A stretch of 64,000 nt of DNA from an uncultured cyanobacterium (GTDB taxonomy: Bacteria > Cyanobacteriota > Cyanobacteriia > PCC-6307 > Cyanobiaceae). The notes beneath the pieces are model-generated. The model ran no database searches. It was not told the DNA's origin and saw only the letters and a list, made by a program, of their open reading frames with translations. The translations under genes were made by a program, and so were the position numbers. Of the stretch, positions 342-12,259 are shown one piece after another (positions within the stretch are counted from its first letter, which is position 1; every line of letters begins with the position of its first letter). Location: contig CAVONQ010000016.1 in the NCBI GenBank assembly GCA_963697335.1, positions 65,965-129,964 of the forward strand, in the 5' to 3' direction.

Positions 342-1843
<1,502 letters not shown>

Positions 1844-1844
<1 letters not shown>

Positions 1845-4462
1845 TGAGGCCCGCGGCCGCTGGTCGGGCCAAGGGTGGCGCCGGCGTGGATGCCCGGGCC
1901 ATCCGCTGGCGGGTCCGGCGCTTCACCCTCGCCTGGTATCTCGTGGTGACGGGCCTTCTGCTCGGGGCGGCGGGCATCACCTTCTGGAGGTTGCAGCTGA
2001 CCATCCAGGAGTTCGCCGGCCAGCGGGTGACCATGGTTCGGGAGAACCTGGGCAAACAGCTCAAGATCACCGACGAGACCTACCGAAAACTCGCCCTTGC
2101 GGCGATGCGGGTGTTGAAGGCTGATTTTCAGGTCCTGGGAGCGGCCCGGTTGGGATCGGGCAGCGTGCGCAGCGGTGACCAAACCGTGCCGGATCTGCGC
2201 TTTGGTGAGTCGCCGGTGGCCGACCAGGCCGCCCTCGTGGAGGAGGTGTCGGCCCAGCTGGGCGCGACCGCCACCGTGTTCGTGGCCCGCGGCGACCGGT
2301 TCATCCGGGTGGCTACCACGGTGAACGATCAGGAGGGCACCGCCGCCATAGGCACCGACCTGGAGCCGGGCGGTGAGGTCATTGAGGCCCTGCGGCAGGG
2401 CGGGGTGTTCATCGGCGTGGTGGACATTCTCGGAGCGCCCTACTTCTCGGCCTATGAACCGATCCGCGACGGCCAGGGTCGGGTGATCGGCGCCTTCTAC
2501 GCGGGCTACCCCATGGCCTCCCTTTCGGAGATCGGCCGCTCGGTGCGCGATGCCAAGATCCTTGAAAATGGCTTCGTGGCCCTCACCGATTCCCAGGGGG
2601 GCCAGCTGTTTCGCTCCTCGGGCGCCACCGCCGACCTTGTTGAGAGGGTGCTGCGCGAGGTTCCGGCCCCGACGGAAGAATCAGCCATCGGCGGGCTCGA
2701 CGGCTACCGGGTGACCCGCACCCGGTTCGCTCCCTGGGGCTTCGACATCGTGATCGCCCGGTTCAATCCGGACATCGATCAGCTGACCTTAAGGCTCACC
2801 GTCGGGGTGCTCTGGCTGATGGCCGTGGTGATCGCCACCGTGCTGGTGCTCTCCTGGTGGTTCAGCCAGCGGCTCTCCCATGCGCTGATTGCCGGGGAAA
2901 TCGCCAGGCGGCGGGCCGATCTGGAGCGCAGGTCGGCCCGGGCCGCCAAGCGGGTGGCTGACCAGGCCAGCCAAGCCAAGAGTGCCTTCCTGGCCAATAT
3001 GAGCCACGAGCTACGTACGCCGATGAACGCGATCATCGGCTACAGCGAGATGTTGATCGAGGAGGCCGAGGAGATCACCTCTGGCCAGATGGTGCTGGAC
3101 CTTCGAAAAATCCAGGCTGCCGGCAAACATCTTCTGGCCTTGATCAATGGTGTGCTCGATCTCTCCAAGATTGAGGCCGGAAAGATGACCCTCTATCTGG
3201 AAGACTTTGATCTGGCTGAGGCAATCCATGAGGCGGCCACCACGGTGACCCCGCTTCTGAGGGAGCATCAGAATCATTTCGTGCTCGACTGCCCAGATGG
3301 GCTGGGCACGCTGCGATCCGATCGCACCAAGTTTCGCCAGTGTCTTCTCAATCTTCTCAGCAATGCCAGCAAGTTCACGGAACGGGGAGAAATCAGCCTG
3401 CGGGTGATCAACGATCTCGCTGATCACCGCATTCGGGTGGTGGTTCAGGACACCGGCATCGGCATGACTGCCGAGCAGATGGAGCACTTGTTCGAGAGTT
3501 TCAACCAGGCCGACAGCAGCACCACCCGCCGCTACGGCGGAACCGGTCTGGGCCTGGCGATCAGTCGTCAATTCAGTCGGATGATGGGTGGCGACATCAC
3601 GGTGGCCAGTTGTCCCGGCCAGGGCAGTTGCTTCACCCTGACCCTCCCCCGGTCGCTGGAACAGCCCGGGCCCGCTTTGGCAGAGCCGGGCCAGCCGGAG
3701 CCTGGTCCCGCTGATCTGCTGGCCCCCAGGGGTCGGGTGCTGGTGGTCGACGATGACCCCGCTGCCCTAGAACTCGTCAGCCGTTTCCTGGCTCGGGACG
3801 GCTACGCCGTCACCACCACGTCCAGCGGGGATGAGGCGATCGCCCTGGCCCGCCAGATCAAGCCCGATGCCATCACCCTGGACGTGATGATGCCGGGACT
3901 GGATGGCTGGAGCGTGCTGGCGGCTCTTAAGGCCGATCCGGAGCTTGCCGCGGTTCCCGTGGTGATGATGAGCATGTTGGACAACCTCGAGCTCGGCTTT
4001 GCGGCGGGCGCGGCGGAATGCCTGACCAAGCCGGTGGACTGGAGCCGCTTCGAGCGGATCCTCGGCCGCCTGACTCCGGTCGATTCCCAGGCGCCAGCGC
4101 GGGCTCTGGTGGTGGAGGCTGACCCCGCCAGCGCCGACTTGCTCCGCCGCATGCTGGAGAAGGGGGGTTGGGCTGTGGATCAGGCCAGAGATGGGCAGGA
4201 GGCACTGAAGGTGCTGGCCCGCTTCCGCCCGACGGTCATCCTGCTCGATCTGATGATGCCCCGCATGGACGGCCTGGACTTCGTCGAGCGGCTGCGGCGC
4301 AACCCCGCCGCAGCGAGCATCCCTGTGATCGTGATCACAGCCCATACCCTGACGCCCGAGGACCAGGCCCGCCTCAATGGCCGGGTCAGCGATGTGATCA
4401 GCAAGGGATCCCTCAGCGCCGCCGCCCTTTCCGAGCAGATCAATGCGATTCTGGCCAGCTGA
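1844..4462 (+). CDS. Membrane hybrid sensor histidine kinase (TM-Cache-TM-HisKA-HATPase-REC-REC)
   Basis: ATG overlaps pds stop (TGATG). Cache-type segment GATATVFV..RVATTV..YFSAYEPIRDGQGRVIG; H-box FLANMSHELRTPMN; N box NLLSNASKFT; DTGIGM and GGTGLGL boxes; two receivers (LDVMMP, LDLMMP). Confidence 0.93.
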
Positions 4463-4489
4463 TTCCCCCTTGGCCGCCCGTTGCCAACC

Positions 4490-4876
4490 ATGACCCGTGT
4501 GCTGCTGGTCGAAGACAACGACATGAACCGGGATATGTTGTCCCGCCGCCTGACCCGCAGGGGCTTCACCGTGGTGATGGCGATCAACGGGGAAGCGGCC
4601 CTGGCCATGGTCGCTGCCGAGACCCCCGACCTGATCCTGATGGACATGAGTCTGCCCGTGATCGACGGGTGGGAAGCGACCCGCCGCCTCAAGGCGGATC
4701 CCGCCACCGCCACCATCCCCGTGATCGGCCTCACCGCCCACGCCATGGAGGGAGATCTGCAGGCTTGCCTGCAGTCGGGCTGTGATGATTACGACACCAA
4801 GCCTGTGGACCTGCCGCGCCTGCTCAACAAGATCCAGACCCAGCTGCAGCGGCTTCAGGCCGGGGCGGAGGCCTGA
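4490..4876 (+). CDS. Single-domain response regulator (DivK/CheY-like)
   Basis: VLLVEDN, LILMDMSLP, TAHAM, TKPVD; no output domain. Confidence 0.92.
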   Translation: MTRVLLVEDNDMNRDMLSRRLTRRGFTVVMAINGEAALAMVAAETPDLILMDMSLPVIDGWEATRRLKADPATATIPVIGLTAHAMEGDLQACLQSGCDDYDTKPVDLPRLLNKIQTQLQRLQAGAEA

Positions 4877-5922
4877 TGGGGCTTGGCCATCCACCTGCGG
4901 GCTCCGGCCCCCCCGATCCTGCGGGATCCGGAGACCAGTCAATGGCGGAGCTGCGCCATGACCTCATCAACCCGATCAACCAGATCCTCGGCTACAGCGA
5001 ATTGCTCGAGGAGGATGCCCGCGACCGGTACCCCGATGCCGTGGAGGACCTCGGCAAAATCCAGCAGGCAGCCGGCACCCTGCTGAGCCTGCTGCAGACG
5101 CGGCTCGTCGGGGCCCTCGAGAGTCCCGCTGGACCCAACCAGCTCCTTGTTAACCAACTGTTACCCAGCACGCCGCTGCCCGACCAGGAGTCCGGGGGGG
5201 CGGCCCCCCGGACGGGACAGATCCTGGTGGTGGATGACGATGCAGCCAACCTCGAGCTTCTCGCCCTGCGGCTGCAGCGCCAGGGGCATGGCGTCACGTC
5301 CGCGTCCGATGGAGAGGAGGCTCTGGAGCGGCTCCGCCATCACGCCTTCGACCTGCTGCTGCTCGACGTGATGATGCCGCGCCTGGATGGCTACGGCACC
5401 CTGGAGCGCCTGAAGATCCATCCCCAGTGGAGGCACCTGCCGGTGATCATGATCAGTGCTCTCGATGAGCTCTCCAGCGTCGTGCGCTGCATCGAGGCGG
5501 GGGCGGATGACTACCTGGCAAAGCCCTTCAATCCCACGCTGTTGCGCGCCAGGATCGGCGCCTGCCTCGACAAGAAGGCCAGCCGGGATCAGGAAATCGC
5601 CCTTTACAACACTCTGGTGAGAAGCCAGCAACGGCTTCGGGCCGACGTCGATGCCGCTCGCAGCCAGGTCGAGTCTCTGGCTCCGGAGCTGCGCGAAGAT
5701 GCCCGTGTCAGTCCCGTGCTGGCGGCGCTGGCCCGCATGGCCGGCGCGGTCTCCCTACGGGAGAATGACTTACGGGTCACCCTTCAGGAACTGGAGATCA
5801 AGATCAACCGGCAGGCCCTCACCACGCAAGTCAGCTCCATCGTCAGCGACCCTGCCTTCTCGGCACTTTCCGAACGGGCCAGGGCGATGCGGAGCCGCCG
5901 CCGGCCTCAGGGAGGCGACTGA
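4876..5922 (+). CDS. HisKA(DHp)-like + receiver + C-terminal helical tail protein
   Basis: LRHDLINPINQILGYSELL (H-box-like, no ATPase domain); receiver ILVVDDD/LLDVMMP/AKPF; TGATG overlaps at both ends; alternative start at ATG 4942. Confidence 0.88.
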   Translation: MGLGHPPAGSGPPDPAGSGDQSMAELRHDLINPINQILGYSELLEEDARDRYPDAVEDLGKIQQAAGTLLSLLQTRLVGALESPAGPNQLLVNQLLPSTPLPDQESGGAAPRTGQILVVDDDAANLELLALRLQRQGHGVTSASDGEEALERLRHHAFDLLLLDVMMPRLDGYGTLERLKIHPQWRHLPVIMISALDELSSVVRCIEAGADDYLAKPFNPTLLRARIGACLDKKASRDQEIALYNTLVRSQQRLRADVDAARSQVESLAPELREDARVSPVLAALARMAGAVSLRENDLRVTLQELEIKINRQALTTQVSSIVSDPAFSALSERARAMRSRRRPQGGD

Positions 5923-6869
5923 TGGACGCCCTGCTCTGCCACCATGGCCCTCACCACGGTCACCCTGTCGTGCTGCCCAGCCTCGACCAGGCCTACGAGG
6001 ACTGCCGCCAGGAGACCGCCCAGTGGGCCAAGACTTTCTATCTGGGAACCCTGCTGATGCCGACGGCCAAGCGCCGGGCGATCTGGGCGATTTATGTGTG
6101 GTGCCGCCGCACCGATGAACTGATGGACAGCGCCGAGGCCCAGGCGCGTCCCAAGGCGGAACTGGCGGCCCGGCTCGACCACTGGGAAGAGCACACCCGC
6201 GAGTTGTTCGAAGGGGTTGTGCTCGATGGCCTCGATCTGGTCATGCGCGACACCCTGGAGCGCTACCCCCAGCCCCTCCAGGCCTATCTCGACATGATCG
6301 AGGGCCAGCGCATGGATCTGCGTCGGCAGCGCTACCCCAGCTTCGACGACCTGGAGCTCTACTGCTACCGGGTGGCCGGCACGGTGGGATTGATGACACA
6401 GGAAGTCATGGGCCGGGACGCGGCATACACCTCGGCCCCCTGGAGCGACGCCCCAGACACCACCGCAGCGGCGGTAGCCCTTGGCATTGCCAATCAGCTC
6501 ACCAACATCCTGCGGGACGTGGGCGAAGACCGGGCCCGTGGCCGCATCTACCTTCCCCAGGAGGACCTGGCCCGTTTTGATTACGGCGAGGACCAACTTA
6601 TGGCCGGGGTCTTCAATGACAACTGGCGGGCTCTGATGCGCTTTCAGCTGGAGCGGGCCCGCCACTGGTTTGCCCGTGCCGAGGACGGCGTGCGTTGGCT
6701 GGCGCCTGATGCCCGCTGGCCGGTGTGGGCATCGTTGCGGTTGTACCGCGGCATCCTCGATGTGATCGAGCAGCAGAACTACGACGTGTTCAACAAGCGC
6801 GCCTTCGTGCCGAGCAGCGGCAAGCTGCTCGACCTGCCACTGTCATTCGTGGTCGCCCAGGTGCGCTGA
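5922..6869 (+). CDS. crtB: Phytoene synthase
   Basis: WAKTFYLGTLL, RRTDELMD, YCYRVAGTVG, NQLTNILRDVGED. Confidence 0.96.
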   Translation: MDALLCHHGPHHGHPVVLPSLDQAYEDCRQETAQWAKTFYLGTLLMPTAKRRAIWAIYVWCRRTDELMDSAEAQARPKAELAARLDHWEEHTRELFEGVVLDGLDLVMRDTLERYPQPLQAYLDMIEGQRMDLRRQRYPSFDDLELYCYRVAGTVGLMTQEVMGRDAAYTSAPWSDAPDTTAAAVALGIANQLTNILRDVGEDRARGRIYLPQEDLARFDYGEDQLMAGVFNDNWRALMRFQLERARHWFARAEDGVRWLAPDARWPVWASLRLYRGILDVIEQQNYDVFNKRAFVPSSGKLLDLPLSFVVAQVR

Positions 6870-6871
6870 CG

Positions 6872-8434
6872 GTGCCGCGACTTCCCTGGCTACCGCCGTT
6901 GGCCACGGCGCTCCTGATCTGCTGCCTTCCCCCCCTACCCCTACGCGCCGAGTGGGAACCCATCGTGCTCCCCAGCGATCTGGAGGTGGAGGCCCTGGGA
7001 AGTGGGTGGACCGGTGAACTGCCCCGCTCGGACCCGGCGCCGCTGCCGGCGGAGCAGCTCACGTCTCTGTCGATGGATCAGGCGGTTCGCTGGTCGAGCC
7101 AGCGCAATCCGGTGATCCGTTCGGCGTTTCAGAACCTGGTGGCCACCCAAAACAGCCTGGGAGCTCAGTACGCCCGCTGGTGGCCAGTGATCAATGTCTC
7201 GCTCACCGGGGGGCTCTACGGGCAGGATTCGGGTGTCAGCGGCACCAGCCTGAATGGGGGTGGCTTCGGCGGTGGCGGTGGCGGCGGCGGCGGCGGCGGC
7301 GGCAGTTTCGGCCCCGATGGGGGCTATTTCTCCTCGATTGCCCAGGTGGACGCCACCTGGAATCTGATCGACCCCTCCCGGGCACCGGCCATTTGGAAGG
7401 CCAAATATCAGGTGCGCCAGGCCGCCGATGCCTACGTCATCGCCTACCGCGACAACCGTTTGCAGGTGGAGTCGGCGTTCATTGCCCTGCAGGCCGCGGC
7501 GGCTCAGGTGCAGGCCAGCAGGCTGATCGTGGATAACGACGGCCTGCTCCTGCAACTCACGGAGGCCAAGCTCCGCCTTGGGGTAGCCTCGCGGCTCGAT
7601 GTGACCAAGCAGAAAACGGTTCTGTTTGCCGACCAGGTTGACCTTGAGCAGGGTGTCAAGGCGGTCGCGATCGCCCGCAGTCAGCTGGCTGAGTTGCTCA
7701 ACGTGGACCAGCCGGATCTGATCAACCCAGGCGCCGCCCTGGTTCCGCTGGGCGTGTGGCCCCACAGCCTTGATCAAACCGTGGAGGCCAGCCTTGCCTA
7801 CCGCAAGGTGATCCAGCAGAAGCTGCTGGATGTGAAAGTCTTTGAAGCTGATGCCCAGATTGCCCTGGCTGTCTACCAGCCCACGCTTCAGCTGATCAAT
7901 ACTCTTTATTGGAACCGCAATGCCTATTGGACAGAGTCGCTGAGAAGCTATGTGTTCAATCCGTCCTCTGCGTTGACTCTCACCTTCACTGGCTTCGACG
8001 GGGGGCAGGCACGGATGGAGGCAGAGGCCTCCAGGCGGAAGTCGGCGGCCGCTGCCCAGGACTACCTGGCAGCCAGGAATTCTGCGCGACAGGAGGCGCA
8101 GGCCGATTTCGCCAAGGTGGACGTGGGCCGCAAGGTGCTGTTGGCTTCGGCCAATGAAGTGGAGCAGGCCAACAAGGCGATTCGGCTTCAGAGCCTTCGC
8201 TTCAATGCAGGCTATGGCACGATCACCGATGTGGTTCAGGCTCAGTTGAGCCTTGCTCAATCAGTTCTCTCGTTTGTCGAAAATCTTAAGGACTACAATC
8301 AGTCCCTGACCAGTCTGGCCAGAAACACCGGACTTAATTATGTGACTGATTCAGTATTCAGCCGTGATGTGGGTCAGCCTTTGTCGGAATTAGAGCGCCT
8401 GCCCGAGCTATTCGATCGACGCACCGGCGGCTGA
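6872..8434 (+). CDS. TolC family outer membrane protein (accessory paralog) with poly-Gly insert
   Basis: Signal-like N-terminus from GTG 6872; twofold OEP repeat (LRLGVASRLDV / FNAGYGTITDVVQAQ); FDGG motif. Confidence 0.85.
   Translation: MPRLPWLPPLATALLICCLPPLPLRAEWEPIVLPSDLEVEALGSGWTGELPRSDPAPLPAEQLTSLSMDQAVRWSSQRNPVIRSAFQNLVATQNSLGAQYARWWPVINVSLTGGLYGQDSGVSGTSLNGGGFGGGGGGGGGGGGSFGPDGGYFSSIAQVDATWNLIDPSRAPAIWKAKYQVRQAADAYVIAYRDNRLQVESAFIALQAAAAQVQASRLIVDNDGLLLQLTEAKLRLGVASRLDVTKQKTVLFADQVDLEQGVKAVAIARSQLAELLNVDQPDLINPGAALVPLGVWPHSLDQTVEASLAYRKVIQQKLLDVKVFEADAQIALAVYQPTLQLINTLYWNRNAYWTESLRSYVFNPSSALTLTFTGFDGGQARMEAEASRRKSAAAAQDYLAARNSARQEAQADFAKVDVGRKVLLASANEVEQANKAIRLQSLRFNAGYGTITDVVQAQLSLAQSVLSFVENLKDYNQSLTSLARNTGLNYVTDSVFSRDVGQPLSELERLPELFDRRTGG
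7268..7303 (+). repeat. GGY tract encoding 12 Gly, ending in (GGC)8
   Basis: ggc ggt ggc ggt then 8 perfect GGC at 7280-7303. Confidence 0.9.
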
Positions 8435-8469
8435 TCTCTCTCTCAGCGTCTCGAGTCTCACGTTTCGTC

Positions 8470-9908
8470 CTAGGGAGGGTCAAGTGCGCGATTGCGCCGG
8501 GCCCGCATGGCCCGGGCCCGTTGGTTCAGCCGGGTGAAGTTGGGATCCTTGACAATGGAGCATATCTGGCCGTGGAGTTCCTCCTGGTTGATGTCGATTT
8601 CCAGGGTCTTGATCTTGGCGAGCAGGGAGTCTCCCCGGTCAGCTACGGCCAGGGCCATGGAGTTGAACGCCTGCACAAGCCGTCCTAGGGCATCATTGCC
8701 GGCGTAGCTGATGGCCTGGCGGCGTTGGCCGTTGCTGATCGCAGTTGCGGCTGCGGCAAGCTCACGTAGTTGCTGCCGAATGCCTTCAGAAATCCGCCAC
8801 GCCGCCAGTCCGCAGAAGCCGATCAGACCTAGGGTCGCTACCGATAGCTGCACCAGGATCCTGAAGGTGTCTGACTGCAACGGCCTGAGCGATTTCAGTA
8901 GGGCCTTATTGTCGACGCTCATCACACTGATCCAGTCCCAGGCTGGGAAGACAGAGATGAACAGGGTGCGCTCTTCCCCCACCGTCCGGGAGTCGCCGGT
9001 AGCGGCGCTCCGGCGTTCCATCAGGTAGGGATCGCCGCTGCCGGAGACCCTGGGCAGCCCACCGGTGGCCTGGAGATCCTTGATCAGATCCTGGCAGGCG
9101 GCTTGTCCAGGTTGGGAGTAGAGGCAGATGGGCCTGTTCGAGGCCGAAAGGCCAAGGAAGGCCAGTTGATGGTCAGCCTGGGGAACAGGTTTGTGGCCGT
9201 CTCCAGCAGACTGGAGGCTGCATCGGTTCGCACACTCACCGAGAGCACCAGTCGTGCGGGGACCGGGTCGGGGCCCAGGGCCGTCAGCTCGCTGAGGCGC
9301 CATCCGTGATCCTCCCTCACCAGAGTGCTCTGGGTGAGCAGTGTTCCGCTGGGGGTGAGATCCAGGGATTCCAACTGTTTTGCCGTTGTGTCTGGTACCC
9401 GCCAGAGCGTGGGGAGTGTTGTGTTCTTATCTGTGACGCCCGCCAGGCGAAGCCAGCTTTTCCCCTCACGGGTGTAGTAAACAGAGGCGCTCTTGTTGGG
9501 CGTGGCCAGGCCCAGCCTCAGGGCGTTGATGACGACCTGCTCGGCGGCCTCCCTGGAGAGCGGTTGCCCTTTCCAGCGGAACCCGCCGTCAGGATCCATA
9601 CCGAGATCCTGCAGGCTTGCCGCCAGACGCTTGCTGTCATCGGACAGATAGTCTGCGGTCTGATCGGCGCTGCTTTGAATCAATCGGGTGGCGGTCCTTA
9701 CCCGGGTCAGGTTGTCCTGGTCAATCAGCTTGGTGATGTCGTGCCCAGCCTCTCTGGAAAGCCGTAGAGCTGTCATGGAGGAAATCAGAAAGAAGATGGC
9801 CATGCTCACCAGCGGACCGCTGACACCCAGAACGATCAGCCGCGTTGAGAGCCCCATGGCTGGGCGCCGCGCTGGTGTTTCATCCTTGGGCGCTCCTTGA
9901 CGGCTCAT
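8470..9908 (-). pseudogene. Membrane sensor (TM-extracytoplasmic-TM-HAMP-conserved tail), split by a one-base frameshift near 9180
   Basis: ORF 9908-9084 has the first TM; ORF 9303-8470 has the second TM, HAMP (LRELAAAATAISNG..DALGRLVQAFNSMA) and tail. One extra base in the G4 run 9180-9183 joins them as ...NLFPQADHQLAF... Confidence 0.75.
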
Positions 9909-9931
9909 GGTCAGCTCTCAGAGGAGGGGTT

Positions 9932-9949
9932 TGAATGTAGGATGAATGT
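9932..9949. promoter_or_regulatory. TGAATGT direct repeat (11-bp period) in divergent promoter region
   Basis: TGAATGT-AGGA-TGAATGT between divergent starts at 9908 and 9983. Confidence 0.35.
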
Positions 9950-9982
9950 CCATGGGCGGTTCAGCCAGGGAGGGACTAAACG

Positions 9983-10753
9983 ATGGTGATGCCTAAAATC
10001 ATCTCAGTCCACTCTTTCCGTGGTGGTACTGGAAAGTCTAATCTGACTGCAAATCTTGCCTTCGCTTTCGCGATGCAGGGCAAGAAAGTTGCCGTCTTTG
10101 ATACCGATCTTGCCTCGCCAGGGATCCACGTTCTGTTTGGATTCTCGGTTCAGCCTGGCCAGACCACACTGAATGACCATCTGCAGGGATCGGCTCCGAT
10201 CAAGGACTGTGCCTACAATGTAACGCCAGAACAGGCTAAGTCCTCCCGCGGCCGGATCTGGTTGGTGCCAGCGTCCATGGAGAGCGACCGCATTGCCCGA
10301 TTGCTGCGGGAGGGATATCAGGTTGAGCGCCTGAATGACGCCCTCTTTGCTCTCGCAGAAACCCTTGGGCTCGATCTCGTGCTGATCGATACCCACCCCG
10401 GGATCAACGAGGAAACCCTCCTTTCTGCGGCCATCTCCGATGTCCTTGTCATCGTGATGCGTCCCGATTCCCAGGACTATCTCGGTACGGCGGTGGCGAT
10501 TGAAGTGGCGGAAAGGCTGGAGGTGCCCGCCATTCGTATGGTGGTCAACAAGGTGCCCAGTCATTTCGACCCAGATCAGGTGCGCGAACGGGTGGCCCGC
10601 AGTTACGGCGTTCCTATCGGGGCCTCCCTCCCCCTCAGCGAAGACCTGCTCACCATTGCCAGCGGCAGCCTGGCCCTGGTGGACGTTCCTGGCCACCCGT
10701 GGAGCGCCGGCGTGACCCAGCTCGCCACCGACCTGGCCGATGTGCTGCGCTGA
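9983..10753 (+). CDS. MinD/ParA family ATPase
   Basis: Deviant Walker A SFRGGTGKS, DTDLASPG, LIDTHPG, VVNKVP; purine-rich RBS upstream. Confidence 0.92.
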   Translation: MVMPKIISVHSFRGGTGKSNLTANLAFAFAMQGKKVAVFDTDLASPGIHVLFGFSVQPGQTTLNDHLQGSAPIKDCAYNVTPEQAKSSRGRIWLVPASMESDRIARLLREGYQVERLNDALFALAETLGLDLVLIDTHPGINEETLLSAAISDVLVIVMRPDSQDYLGTAVAIEVAERLEVPAIRMVVNKVPSHFDPDQVRERVARSYGVPIGASLPLSEDLLTIASGSLALVDVPGHPWSAGVTQLATDLADVLR

Positions 10754-11936
10754 TGCTCCAGGCCCCCCAGGGGATCCGGGGGGCAGGCCCGCCCAGGTCG
10801 CGTTGCCGGAGGGGCCCCTCTCCATGAGCCTGCTGCTGGCGGTGGAGCCTGTGACACTCCGACGGCTGCTCCGCCTCGGACTGCGGACCGGTCTGGAGGA
10901 AGGGGAGTTTGATCAGCTCTGCAGCGCCAGCGCCGACGCCATGGGCATGGCCCCGGCAGCCCTGCGTGAGGGCTTCAGGCACGGGGGTGGCTCGGCTGGG
11001 ACCCCGGCCGCGACCGCTGGCGGACGCGTCTAGGCGCCCCCTTCGCCCCGCCGCCTCAGGATTGTCCGGCCGCTGAGCGCGGTCCTGCAGCAGTGGGTTC
11101 ACCTGCTCCGGTGCCTCATCGTGGGGGCAATGGCCCAGCCCCGGCAGTTCATGCAGGCGGCGCACGCAGGCGAAGCGCTGCCAGCGGCGGGCTTCGGCCA
11201 CGGGTTCCCAGGGATCTGCCTGGCCGCAGATCAGGGTCACGGGCGTGGCCAGCTCGCCGAGCAGGTCCGGGGCCAGGTAGTCATCGAAGAGATTCACGAA
11301 GCCGCGGAAGGCCTCGCTGGCGCCGGGCTGCTGGGCGGGGGTGAGCAGCAATTCCACCAGCTGCTCATCCACGTTGCGGCCGCTGGGATAGGCCTGGAGC
11401 AGCACCCGGCGGATCGCCTGCGGGCGGGCGAAGGAGCGGAACAGCAACTGGGTCAGCCAGCGTTGGCGCACCACGCTCTTGAGCGCTGGGCGCAGGCGGC
11501 GCAGCCCTGCGGGCTGGTCAACCAGGCGCTTGTCATCGAGGGCTCGCTGGGCGCAGTCCACAAGCACCACGCCGAGGGCGGGATGGCCGCTGCGCTCCAG
11601 CTTGGCAGCGGCCGCCAAGGCCACGACGCCGCCGATGGAGTTCCCCACCAGCTGCACCGTCTCCAGCTGCTGGGAGGCGATGAACGCCACCACCTGATCG
11701 GCCCAGAGCTCCATGCCGTAGTGCAGGCAGCCCGGCAGGTCGGGTTCGTCCCGCAGGCGGGAGCGGGGCTTGTCGCTGGCCCCGAAACCGATCAGGTCAA
11801 GGGCATAGACGGGCCGCTGCTGCCGAAGCGCCTCCACGGTGTGGCGCCAGTGTTCCTTGCAGGCCCCGAAGCCGTGGATCATCAGCACGGGAGCCCCGGG
11901 GGTGGCGGTCAGGGCCGGTGCGGCCAGATACGCCAT
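10650..11936 (-). CDS. Alpha/beta fold hydrolase (family-like sequence ends ~11085; the rest of the ORF is probably spurious)
   Basis: IHGFGA, DLIGFG, GNSIGG nucleophile elbow, GHCPHDE. Confidence 0.88.
   Translation of the reverse strand: MAYLAAPALTATPGAPVLMIHGFGACKEHWRHTVEALRQQRPVYALDLIGFGASDKPRSRLRDEPDLPGCLHYGMELWADQVVAFIASQQLETVQLVGNSIGGVVALAAAAKLERSGHPALGVVLVDCAQRALDDKRLVDQPAGLRRLRPALKSVVRQRWLTQLLFRSFARPQAIRRVLLQAYPSGRNVDEQLVELLLTPAQQPGASEAFRGFVNLFDDYLAPDLLGELATPVTLICGQADPWEPVAEARRWQRFACVRRLHELPGLGHCPHDEAPEQVNPLLQDRAQRPDNPEAAGRRGRLDASASGRGRGPSRATPVPEALTQGCRGHAHGVGAGAAELIKLPFLQTGPQSEAEQPSECHRLHRQQQAHGEGPLRQRDLGGPAPRIPWGAWSISAAHRPGRWRAGSRRRSTGGQERPPGPGCRWQW
10824..11033 (+). CDS. Small probable winged-helix protein, apparently frameshifted near 10970
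   Basis: MSLLLAVEPVTLRRLLRLGLRTGL..AALREG; the -1 frame continues LQARGWLGWDPGRDRWRTRLG, which resembles a wing. Confidence 0.5.
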   Translation: MSLLLAVEPVTLRRLLRLGLRTGLEEGEFDQLCSASADAMGMAPAALREGFRHGGGSAGTPAATAGGRV

Positions 11937-12259
11937 CCGCCAACCCCGCCAGGTCGCAGGGGGGCGGGGCGGAGAGCCGGGTGCGGGATAGGCACGCAGA
12001 CGGCGGGGGCAGCGCAGAGCCCGGACCGGCGGGCGCCGGGGCGGGCGACGCGCAGCAGGCGGGCGCGGTGAGAGCCGCGACGCGCCGCAGATCAGGCGGC
12101 GGCGGACGGGGAGAGGAGAAGGAGACGGGGCAGGGCGCCGGGCGGCATGGCCGCGAGCCAGGCTGGGGGGTAGGGAGAGGTGACCATCGGGCTGGGGCGG
12201 GGGACTGATCGGTGCCGGCCGCCATCTCGTCGGCGCTGCGGGGCCGCCTCCAGCTGGTT

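Follow-up and report, generated by a model that had tools for sequence, protein, structure and literature searches.

A C-terminal tail module linked to a MinD-like ATPase: a candidate signaling output in a cyanobacterial carotenoid-gene neighborhood

Many cyanobacterial sensors that carry generic names have no known output. Here we ask where such sensors would send their signal in one locus of an uncultured cyanobacterium of the family Cyanobiaceae. The locus lies in a stretch of 64,000 nucleotides (GenBank assembly GCA_963697335.1, contig CAVONQ010000016.1, positions 65,965 to 129,964 of the forward strand), the whole of which we call the window. It encodes two signaling proteins with a common C-terminal tail next to a MinD/ParA-like ATPase. 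A preliminary description, made from the letters alone, had proposed that a phosphorelay branch and a transmembrane HAMP branch converge on this tail and had named the ATPase and a small winged helix-turn-helix (wHTH)-like protein as the candidate targets. On balance, we favor the reading that the tail is an undescribed signaling output that docks on and controls a dedicated MinD-like ATPase with an RGGTGKS motif, the phosphorelay and the membrane sensor both feeding it. What we computed is the tail module, its C-terminal position, the variety of its inputs, its linkage to and co-occurrence with the ATPase, and a complex model that supports the pairing.

A conserved C-terminal tail on diverse sensors

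The likeness of the two tails held up in BLASTP, where 25 of 57 residues were identical (E = 6e-8). Copy 1 (positions 5701 to 5898, plus strand; the region covered by the 66-residue profile described below) takes up about residues 281 to 342 of a 348-residue protein and reads ...ALARMAGAV..RE..L...L.ELEIKIN....QVSSIVSDPAFSALSERARAMRSR. Copy 2 (8497 to 8694, minus strand; located by BLASTP against copy 1) ends the transmembrane HAMP protein and reads ...LVQAFNSMALAV..R...L...I.TLEIDIN....QICSIVKDPNFTRLNQRARAMRAR. A genome search found these to be the sole two copies in the 2.58-Mb genome. An AlphaFold2 (AF2) model of the 348-residue protein contains a DHp hairpin (residues 18 to 82), the receiver (REC) domain, a long helix (220 to 267) and helices at 279 to 310, 313 to 324 and 326 to 342. 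The tail corresponds to the last two helices and the end of the one before, with predicted local distance difference test (pLDDT) scores of 52 to 64 in this monomer model.

We built a 66-column profile from an alignment of 23 tails of related genomes. An exhaustive search of 1.84 billion protein representatives with this profile gave 1616 matches at E ≤ 1e-3, of which 185 had E ≤ 1e-10. Among the best 150 of the 1616 carriers, fifteen positions are each 86 to 99% conserved: F10, M13, R20, E21, L24, L31, I33, I35, D/N36, V44, I47, F53, L56, A60 and R64, with R20 at 95% and E21 at 93%. Along the module, the final HAMP-like helix leads into L-x-I-x-I-[DN], after which come a short helix with V-x-x-I and a basic, capped helix with F-x-x-L-x-x-x-A-x-x-x-R; it is positions 31 to 64, past the coiled coil, that are best conserved. 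The match ends a median of 9 residues from the C terminus, and within 30 residues of it in 141 of the 150.

This tail matched no characterized output domain: no Pfam match covered it in the 150 carriers, and a profile search of the PDB gave no significant hit, the best being myosin VI at E = 0.029, which is coiled-coil noise. The same PDB search gave no sequence or profile likeness to solved MinE- or ParB-type partner peptides. A homolog search with the tail region gave 15 close HisKA-REC-tail proteins only, and no longer proteins were found. Thus, on what is weak evidence, there is no sign that the tail is a linker left behind by a lost larger output domain. The tail is probably an output module that has not been described before, C-terminal and about 65 residues long.

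To which inputs is it attached? We tallied Pfam hits in the best 150 carriers. HAMP without REC was found in 84, preceded by dCache_1, sCache_2, sCache_3_2, CHASE3, Tll0287-like or ECF-type membrane parts. REC was present in 16, of which 10 were HisKA-REC proteins and 1 was a complete hybrid kinase. Eight carriers had cNMP_binding and five had GAF domains; 35, mostly short fragments, had no Pfam hit, and the remaining 2 were gene-call artifacts. Further input forms seen in the loci described below are PAS-tail, dCache-HAMP-PAS-tail and CHASE2-tail. By Pfam, the tail proteins have no other output domain, and the regulators of the window were, as the preliminary description had it, free of cyclase, phosphatase, GGDEF, MCP and DNA-binding outputs. 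The public names of the carriers are generic ("HAMP domain-containing protein," "response regulator"). One carrier is named by NCBI as coming from a Chloroflexota metagenome-assembled genome.

Pairing of the tail with an RGGTGKS ATPase

The ATPase gene (positions 9983 to 10753, plus strand) encodes a P-loop protein of 256 residues. It scored above the Pfam cut-offs for CbiA (59.0 bits; cut-off, 25.4), ParA (58.0; 27.1) and AAA_31 (49.6; 27), which places it among MinD/ParA proteins. The deviant Walker A signature motif of such proteins is KGGxGK[ST]. In all 19 aligned members of the subfamily to which the window ATPase belongs, arginine stands in place of the signature lysine and the second lysine is unchanged (GKS), and all 19 share HS[FY]RGGTGKSN, DTHPG and RPDxQD[YF]xGTAV; the P-loop of the window protein reads HSFRGGTGKSN. 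Its best NCBIfam match, minD_arch (TIGR01969), scored 87.9 bits against a cut-off of 201.75, and minD_bact (TIGR01968) scored 41.3 against 212.9. NF047398, a family of variant AAA ATPases with a KGGVGR motif, was also below its cut-off (80.5 against 90). The closest solved structures are Archaeoglobus MinD-1 (1HYQ, E = 1e-21), Aquifex MinD (4V03, 4V02) and FleN (5J1J, E = 2e-13). At least 7999 proteins match one ATPase of this subfamily, that of locus L068, at E ≤ 1e-40 (7999 of 8000 scored candidates), and the public names are "MinD/ParA family protein" or "septum site-determining protein MinD." Synpcc7942_0220, All2033 and All2797, which may belong to the RGGTGKS subfamily, are listed in PMC7766704 as extra MinD homologs with no stated function; in PMC7381316, Synpcc7942_0220 is simply named as part of MinCDE.

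The preliminary description had named this ATPase as a candidate target of the tail, and the distribution of the two genes supports the link. Of 201 genomes sampled from the window's family, 32 have the ATPase (E ≤ 1e-30) and 169 lack it, and a search with a single tail sequence gave hits in 28. Discordant genomes were searched again with the profile, and the loci were read. We found a tail gene within about 3.1 kb of the ATPase in all 32 genomes (32/32). The pairs are divergent, convergent or co-directional, and they involve four or more input types. Fifteen genomes are of what we call type 1, with a HAMP-tail protein, a HisKA-REC-tail protein or both; one of these is cut by a contig end and shows the N terminus of the HAMP gene only. 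In 14 loci, a cNMP-tail protein of about 240 residues lies about 1 kb from an ATPase paralog with 38 to 46% identity (Pfam was used to check four of these loci, two were read, and for the others only coordinates were used). Four loci have the ATPase, then a glutaminase, then a Cache-HAMP-PAS-tail protein, and 2 further HAMP-tail forms lie near an ATPase, one of them recognized only by eye. Two family genomes had a tail hit and no ATPase; one of them has its contig cut within crtB, and the hit in the other is weak (E of 0.006 to 0.04).

The same association was seen across the phylum. Among 401 cyanobacterial genomes, we found 88 ATPase genes in 71. Tail matches occurred in 84 genomes, from which we kept 106 hits in 76 genomes, having set aside about 27 of the listed matches, which were confined to the profile's HAMP-helix part and ended before position 45. 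Both genes were present in 67 genomes, the ATPase only in 4, the tail only in 9 and neither in 321, so that 67 of the 71 genomes with the ATPase have a tail somewhere. A tail hit lay within 10 kb of 59 of the 88 ATPase genes, at a median gap of about 440 bases; a rough chance expectation, at about 1.4 tails per 5-Mb genome, is less than 1 of the 88. As a background, we used 79 hybrid-kinase loci from many phyla, which had been retrieved with a 962-residue hybrid kinase-tail protein (P0113) and matched it through the kinase and REC parts only. They contained 0 tails and 0 such ATPases.

We then co-folded the ATPase with the 66-residue tail from our own alignments, alongside three controls. The interface score ipSAE was 0.73, 0.74 and 0.72 for the predicted complex, and the best of the three controls gave 0.00. 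The pass mark is reached by 116 of 157 solved complexes and by 2 of 215 mismatched pairs, counts that are only rough here because our own alignments were used. At least 97% of the contacts were common to the runs, and pLDDT of the partner was at least 76, compared with 52 to 64 for the tail in the monomer model. Predicted contacts on the tail side fall within residues 28 to 66, outside the HAMP helix and in the part peculiar to the tail; those on the ATPase side fall within residues 114 to 122, 141 to 151, 161 to 180 and 194 to 207 and include the invariant RPDxQDYxGTAV helix. At one predicted contact the two partners covary: residue 167 of the ATPase is Q opposite D at tail position 36 in 21 pairs and L opposite N or S in 13 pairs; 2 pairs depart from this pattern. 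The complex model thus supports binding of the tail to the ATPase without showing it. Together, the in silico tests of co-occurrence, of likeness to characterized domains and of complex formation supported the earlier interpretation.

The pairs stand in different surroundings. In the cNMP sub-type (L046, 7881 to 11879, and L047 to L051), the cNMP-tail gene is convergent with an operon of an ATPase paralog and a 290-residue polytopic membrane protein, and the neighboring gene encodes an MscS-like channel that has a cNMP domain of its own. A trio of ATPase, glutaminase (Pfam Glutaminase, E of about 1e-122) and dCache-HAMP-PAS-tail protein recurs in L052, L061, L062, L063 and L066, from several families; L056 is a glutaminase-type locus with no tail gene. 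In L073, an Asp/Glu racemase, a solute-binding protein and a dicarboxylate symporter lie between the tail gene and the ATPase. Together, the glutaminase trio and the genes of L073 point to an amino acid or nitrogen theme. DUF7005 (about 400 residues, E of about 1e-170) stands beside the ATPase in L069, L072 and L075, often with a double-cNMP-binding protein, and in L075 the ATPase lies between a TolC-type OEP and an MscS-type channel. Genome G217 (L056 to L059) has eight tail hits alongside five ATPase paralogs; in L058 there are two PAS-PAS-tail/ATPase pairs in tandem.

A proposed pathway and its alternatives

What feeds the tail in the window? The first branch would begin with a hybrid histidine kinase of 872 residues (positions 1844 to 4462, plus strand), in which Pfam finds a periplasmic Cache_3-Cache_2 domain (5e-38), followed after a transmembrane segment by HisKA (3.3e-18), HATPase_c (1.8e-29) and two REC domains (Response_reg, two stretches). 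A lone REC protein of 131 residues follows (4481 to 4876, plus strand; Response_reg, 6.6e-27), and an ortholog with 60 to 78% identity occupies the same position in 8 related loci. The third gene (4876 to 5922, plus strand) encodes the 348-residue protein, a DHp domain (HisKA without the ATPase), REC, helical linker and tail. Its REC domain is well above the Response_reg cut-off (105.3 bits, 2.5e-30); HisKA falls just below its own (26.2 bits against 26.9, 8.4e-6) and Pfam finds no HATPase_c, so it does not classify as a histidine kinase. At best, this protein could pass a phosphate group on or take it off. The H-box residue H28 and the REC residues D120-D122, D164, S194 and K216 are invariant in 13 homologs; the REC residues correspond to the acidic pocket and the REC aspartate, serine and lysine, respectively. 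The second branch is the transmembrane sensor-HAMP-tail gene (8470 to 9908, minus strand), which is split between two frames in this assembly and is divergent from the ATPase gene across a 74-base spacer. Its HAMP domain scores 26.0 bits (cut-off, 25) in the C-terminal open reading frame (ORF) and 32.2 bits in an intact relative (L039).

If both branches serve one target, either should suffice beside the same ATPase. This is what the 16 type-1 loci show: 4 have both branches, 4 the REC branch only and 6 the HAMP branch only, 2 are cut by contig ends, and every one has the same ATPase. The distribution is as "two inputs, one target" predicts and agrees with the earlier proposal. The parts of type 1 are always found together beside pds and crtB: a second TolC, at least one tail protein, the ATPase and a protein of 71 to 73 residues. 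The TolC gene (about 6870 to 8434, plus strand), the second in the genome, encodes an outer membrane channel that Pfam assigns to OEP in two repeats (5.9e-37, 127.7 bits), and it scores 75.3 against a cut-off of 225.15 for TIGR01844. It is specific to the island, with close orthologs (E ≤ 1e-107) in the 15 type-1 genomes only; other genomes have TolC proteins of about 30% identity.

The small gene (10821 to 11035, plus strand; ORF 10740 to 11033) is conserved 3' of the ATPase in 13 related loci. Its product was found in 14 of the 201 family genomes, all with a type-1 ATPase. It has no Pfam hit. Its AF2 model has an H-b-H-H-b-b topology (pLDDT, 76.5), and its top Foldseek hits, almost all of them to winged-helix domains, reach an E of only 0.023 at best, with TM scores of 0.5 to 0.65. 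The "wHTH-like" label of the preliminary description is thus plausible in topology and not proven, the structural matches being not significant. We also considered this protein as a universal partner, and rejected it when a hidden Markov model (HMM) found none in 30 loci of other sub-types. Limited to one sub-type, it cannot be the general target. In L054, a 404-residue protein encoded after the ATPase (5563 to 6777, minus strand), which the HMM missed, has an N terminus that by eye resembles the small protein, fused to an alpha/beta-hydrolase-3 domain with an HGGGW motif.

From these data we infer that the tail binds the ATPase in the cell, and likewise which partner controls the other, how the ATPase responds and what the pathway finally puts out. 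In the phosphorelay, phosphate would pass from the histidine of the Cache kinase to its own REC domain(s) or the lone REC, then to H28 of the DHp domain and on to D164 of the REC domain in the 348-residue protein, an order that we infer as well. In the membrane branch, the periplasmic sensor would signal to HAMP. REC phosphorylation or HAMP rotation would alter the helical linker and so expose or re-register the tail, which would then bind the ATPase helix that follows the DTHPG switch-II motif. Binding would set the dimer state and the ATP cycle of the ATPase, by analogy with MinE, MinC or ParB peptides. The ATPase would act on partners specific to each sub-type, here probably the winged-helix protein and the private TolC, directly or through gene expression. 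The winged-helix protein, co-transcribed with the ATPase, and the second TolC are most likely the downstream parts; elsewhere, the partners may be the glutaminase, DUF7005 with double-cNMP proteins, or transporters.

Several points weigh against this reading. The evidence is wholly computational. Because MinD-MinE-like and ParA-partner complexes have already been solved, the pass of the complex model may partly reflect memory, and the ATPase was modeled as a monomer without nucleotide. MinE and MinC touch MinD, and ParB-type peptides touch ParA, on the equivalent face; that our docking face is the MinE/ParB face is an analogy. The covariation is a hint only, because all of the L/N cases come from one clade and amount to about one evolutionary event. 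Related genomes are not independent, so the two-by-two counts overstate the support. Since 29 of the 88 ATPase genes have no tail hit within 10 kb and 45 of the 106 tail hits are unlinked to an ATPase, the linkage is frequent and not obligatory. There was no tail gene within 4.5 kb in six loci, and one tail adjacency (genome G176) was read by eye after the profile had missed it. The neighboring genes vary by sub-type (glutaminase, DUF7005, cNMP proteins, transporters, TolC, winged helix), and no common downstream target is visible. Finally, two genes of the pair's locus are frameshifted in the assembly of this very genome.

The roles could also be reversed, with the ATPase a positioning motor and the tail a cargo tag, so that the ATPase places or spaces sensors that signal by some other route. 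Linkage and the complex model fit a tag equally well, and the ParA-like PpfA and ParC place chemoreceptor clusters through short peptides of receptors or adaptors. Recruitment of ParA to chemotaxis receptors has arisen several times according to bioRxiv 10.64898/2026.10.19.760177. If the tail were a tag, however, the signal would have nowhere to go, because the tail proteins have no other output domain, and for this reason we rate positioning below control of the ATPase. Soluble cNMP-tail proteins of 240 residues would also be odd cargo, and this ATPase lacks the signature lysine. We therefore consider positioning unlikely, if worth keeping in mind. Another explanation is that the tail is a generic coiled-coil or signaling-helix extension for dimerization and that its ATPase neighborhood is inherited gene order. 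In the first 25 profile positions, the AS2 helix of HAMP runs into a heptad-like stretch where R-E is conserved, which resembles the region of the S-helix motif, and many of the counted genomes are close kin. Yet it is positions 31 to 64, beyond the coiled coil, that are best conserved and make the predicted contacts, and the module is terminal, whereas S-helices link two domains. The pairing did not occur in the 79 control kinase loci. Inherited gene order alone is insufficient because the pairing recurs with different and unrelated inputs, with ATPase paralogs 38 to 46% identical at separate loci, and in three orientations. We regard this explanation as very improbable.

The frameshifts raise a further alternative, which concerns this genome only: that the module is decaying, the HAMP-tail and winged-helix genes being true pseudogenes while the phosphorelay branch and the ATPase still work. 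The HAMP gene consists of two overlapping ORFs in different frames (9084 to 9908 and 8470 to 9303). Compared with a relative of the same genus, one base is missing near 9179/9180, after a run of C, and relatives encode the gene as a single protein of 456 to 500 residues. In the small gene, the frame changes between 10961 and 10973. That these two one-base frameshifts lie at short homopolymer runs within 1.8 kb speaks for decay, as do the neighboring long genes, which are intact (the 872-residue kinase, pds, crtB, TolC and the ATPase), and the 3' ends of the small gene and the hydrolase gene described below, which are also irregular. We compared contigs from four related public runs, which are 90 to 99% or more alike (at most 0.48 of sampled words matched, and none was shown to be the same strain). 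Against decay, all four (4/4) have an extra G behind 9179, and in two (X18 and X2) there is also an extra C behind 10970; in run X1, a contig of 159 bases carries the base at 9179 and differs at one other position only. Because the public-run contigs carry the extra bases, the frameshifts are assembly errors or very recent strain-specific lesions, between which contigs cannot discriminate, and contigs may miss rare variants. Decay of the module in this genome thus seems a doubtful explanation, with little probability to it.

How does control of the ATPase by the tail compare with known systems? As in MinD-MinE/MinC, the ATPase is a P-loop protein of the MinD clade, and its short helical partner is predicted to sit on the helix after switch II. 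Unlike MinD, it is not a MinD equivalog and has the arginine of RGGTGKS, its partner is a sensor C terminus with no sequence likeness in the PDB, and no division role is implied for it. ParA-ParB and McdA-McdB likewise join an ATPase to a partner with a short basic helical contact peptide, and in type 1 a small gene stands 3' of the ATPase. Here, however, the contact module is carried by signal-input proteins, the small downstream protein occurs in 14 of 201 genomes, and the locus lies by pds and crtB and not in a carboxysome operon. We rejected carboxysome positioning of the McdAB type on the grounds of this location, of the ATPase being present in only 32 of the 201 family genomes and of the reported absence of McdAB from alpha-cyanobacteria (PMC7182216).

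FleN/FlhG proteins are MinD-like regulators of a transcription factor or of flagellar number. FleN is a MinD-like ATPase that acts as a regulatory switch rather than in partition. It is among the closest solved relatives of the window ATPase, and the type-1 operon couples that ATPase to a winged-helix-like protein; unlike in FleN/FlhG, there is no FleQ-type partner and no flagellar gene here, and the putative winged-helix link is absent from the other sub-types. In PpfA-TlpT and ParC-ParP, a receptor is physically tied to a ParA-type ATPase by a short peptide, as is proposed for the tail. This locus differs from them in having no MCP signaling domain, CheA or CheW, and its receptors have no other output. 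S-helices run to about 40 residues, have an E-R-T-like motif at their center and join two signaling domains. The tail follows the same kinds of domains (HAMP, REC, GAF, PAS, cNMP) and has a conserved R-E some 8 residues beyond the AS2 motif of HAMP; it differs in being terminal (within 30 residues of the end in 141 of 150) and in adding two conserved helices that are not coiled coil.

The accessible text of bioRxiv 10.64898/2026.10.19.760177 describes repeated recruitment of ParA to chemotaxis loci (section 12) and does not describe the present pairing; "HAMP" and "receiver" occur 0 times in that text. The immune ParA systems of the same preprint were rejected as a match, since in their arginine variant it is the other lysine of Walker A that is replaced, and effector genes are absent here. 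We found no description of the tail/ATPase pairing in the full-text literature searched. A ParA/MinD ATPase with a partner peptide is a known kind of system. What would be new is that the partner is fused to signaling inputs, and there is a fair chance that the pair forms a signaling class of its own. In its widest form the idea is tentative, and we put it forward as one that may well fail: one-component, HAMP, cNMP/GAF and phosphorelay sensors would share an ATPase-docking output that switches a MinD-like ATPase without the signature lysine, with targets specific to each sub-type, in a widespread and cyanobacteria-centered class parallel to two-component, chemotaxis and c-di-GMP signaling and overlooked by present domain censuses.

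If control of the ATPase by the tail is correct, more than a thousand orphan sensors (1616 tail clusters) would gain a testable pathway. It would also mean that classical input domains can feed MinD/ParA-type ATPases that work as signal-controlled switches, and it would offer a way to learn what controls the private TolC and the winged-helix protein encoded next to carotenoid genes in picocyanobacteria. At 66 residues for the module and 250 for the ATPase, both partners are short and should be amenable to in vitro work.

The island and its neighbors in the window

We derived the gene order from ORF lists and from Pfam and NCBIfam scans. The region from 400 to 12000 has a high guanine-plus-cytosine content, 0.58 to 0.74, in a genome of 18 contigs. 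All seven elements listed in the preliminary description (the hybrid kinase, the lone REC, the DHp-REC-tail protein, TolC, the HAMP-tail protein, the ATPase and the small protein) were recovered close to where it had placed them. It had overlooked crtB between the DHp-REC-tail gene and TolC, pds upstream, and the one-base frameshifts in the HAMP and small genes, and it had not mentioned that the HAMP gene is on the minus strand.

Flanking the island is pds/crtP (405 to 1844, plus strand), for a 15-cis-phytoene desaturase of the plant/cyanobacterial type (TIGR02731, 878 bits; cut-off, 569.4; Amino_oxidase, E = 1.1e-91). The start codon of the kinase gene overlaps its stop codon by 1 base. By tblastn, pds adjoins the tail/ATPase module in 14 loci, and it borders the island in all related loci. 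crtB, for phytoene synthase (5922 to 6869, plus strand), matches SQS_PSY (2.3e-73, 247.6 bits) and, for the cyanobacterial CrtB family NF045686, scores 442 bits, below the cut-off of 550. From the positions of pds and crtB, the cassette of kinase, lone REC and DHp-REC-tail genes lies between them, and these three genes move as a cassette in 8 related loci. In one related locus (L037), the cassette follows TolC and pds and crtB are adjacent, and therefore the cassette moves as a unit. A regulatory tie between the cassette and the carotenoid genes may exist.

An alpha/beta-hydrolase ORF of 428 residues (10650 to 11936, minus strand) overlaps the small ORF. Its homologs align to residues 1 to 293 only, and the C-terminal stretch runs antisense across the winged-helix gene. 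Related contigs show several indels in this region and a replaced stretch from 11037 to 11180; the stop codon of the hydrolase may have been lost, or the region may be misassembled. A Rieske-type ORF (CPHKGASL...C.YHGW, by eye) lies about 300 bases 3' of the winged-helix gene in many loci of type 1 (L035 to L038, L043 to L045 and L055), and is not present in the window. In the 74-base spacer between the HAMP-tail and ATPase genes, contigs of three public runs (X18, X2 and X6) have an extra G behind 9967. The TolC ORF opens at 6725, 145 bases inside crtB and in another frame (6725 to 6869); the true start of TolC is probably just 3' of the crtB stop codon, where a stretch resembling a signal peptide begins.

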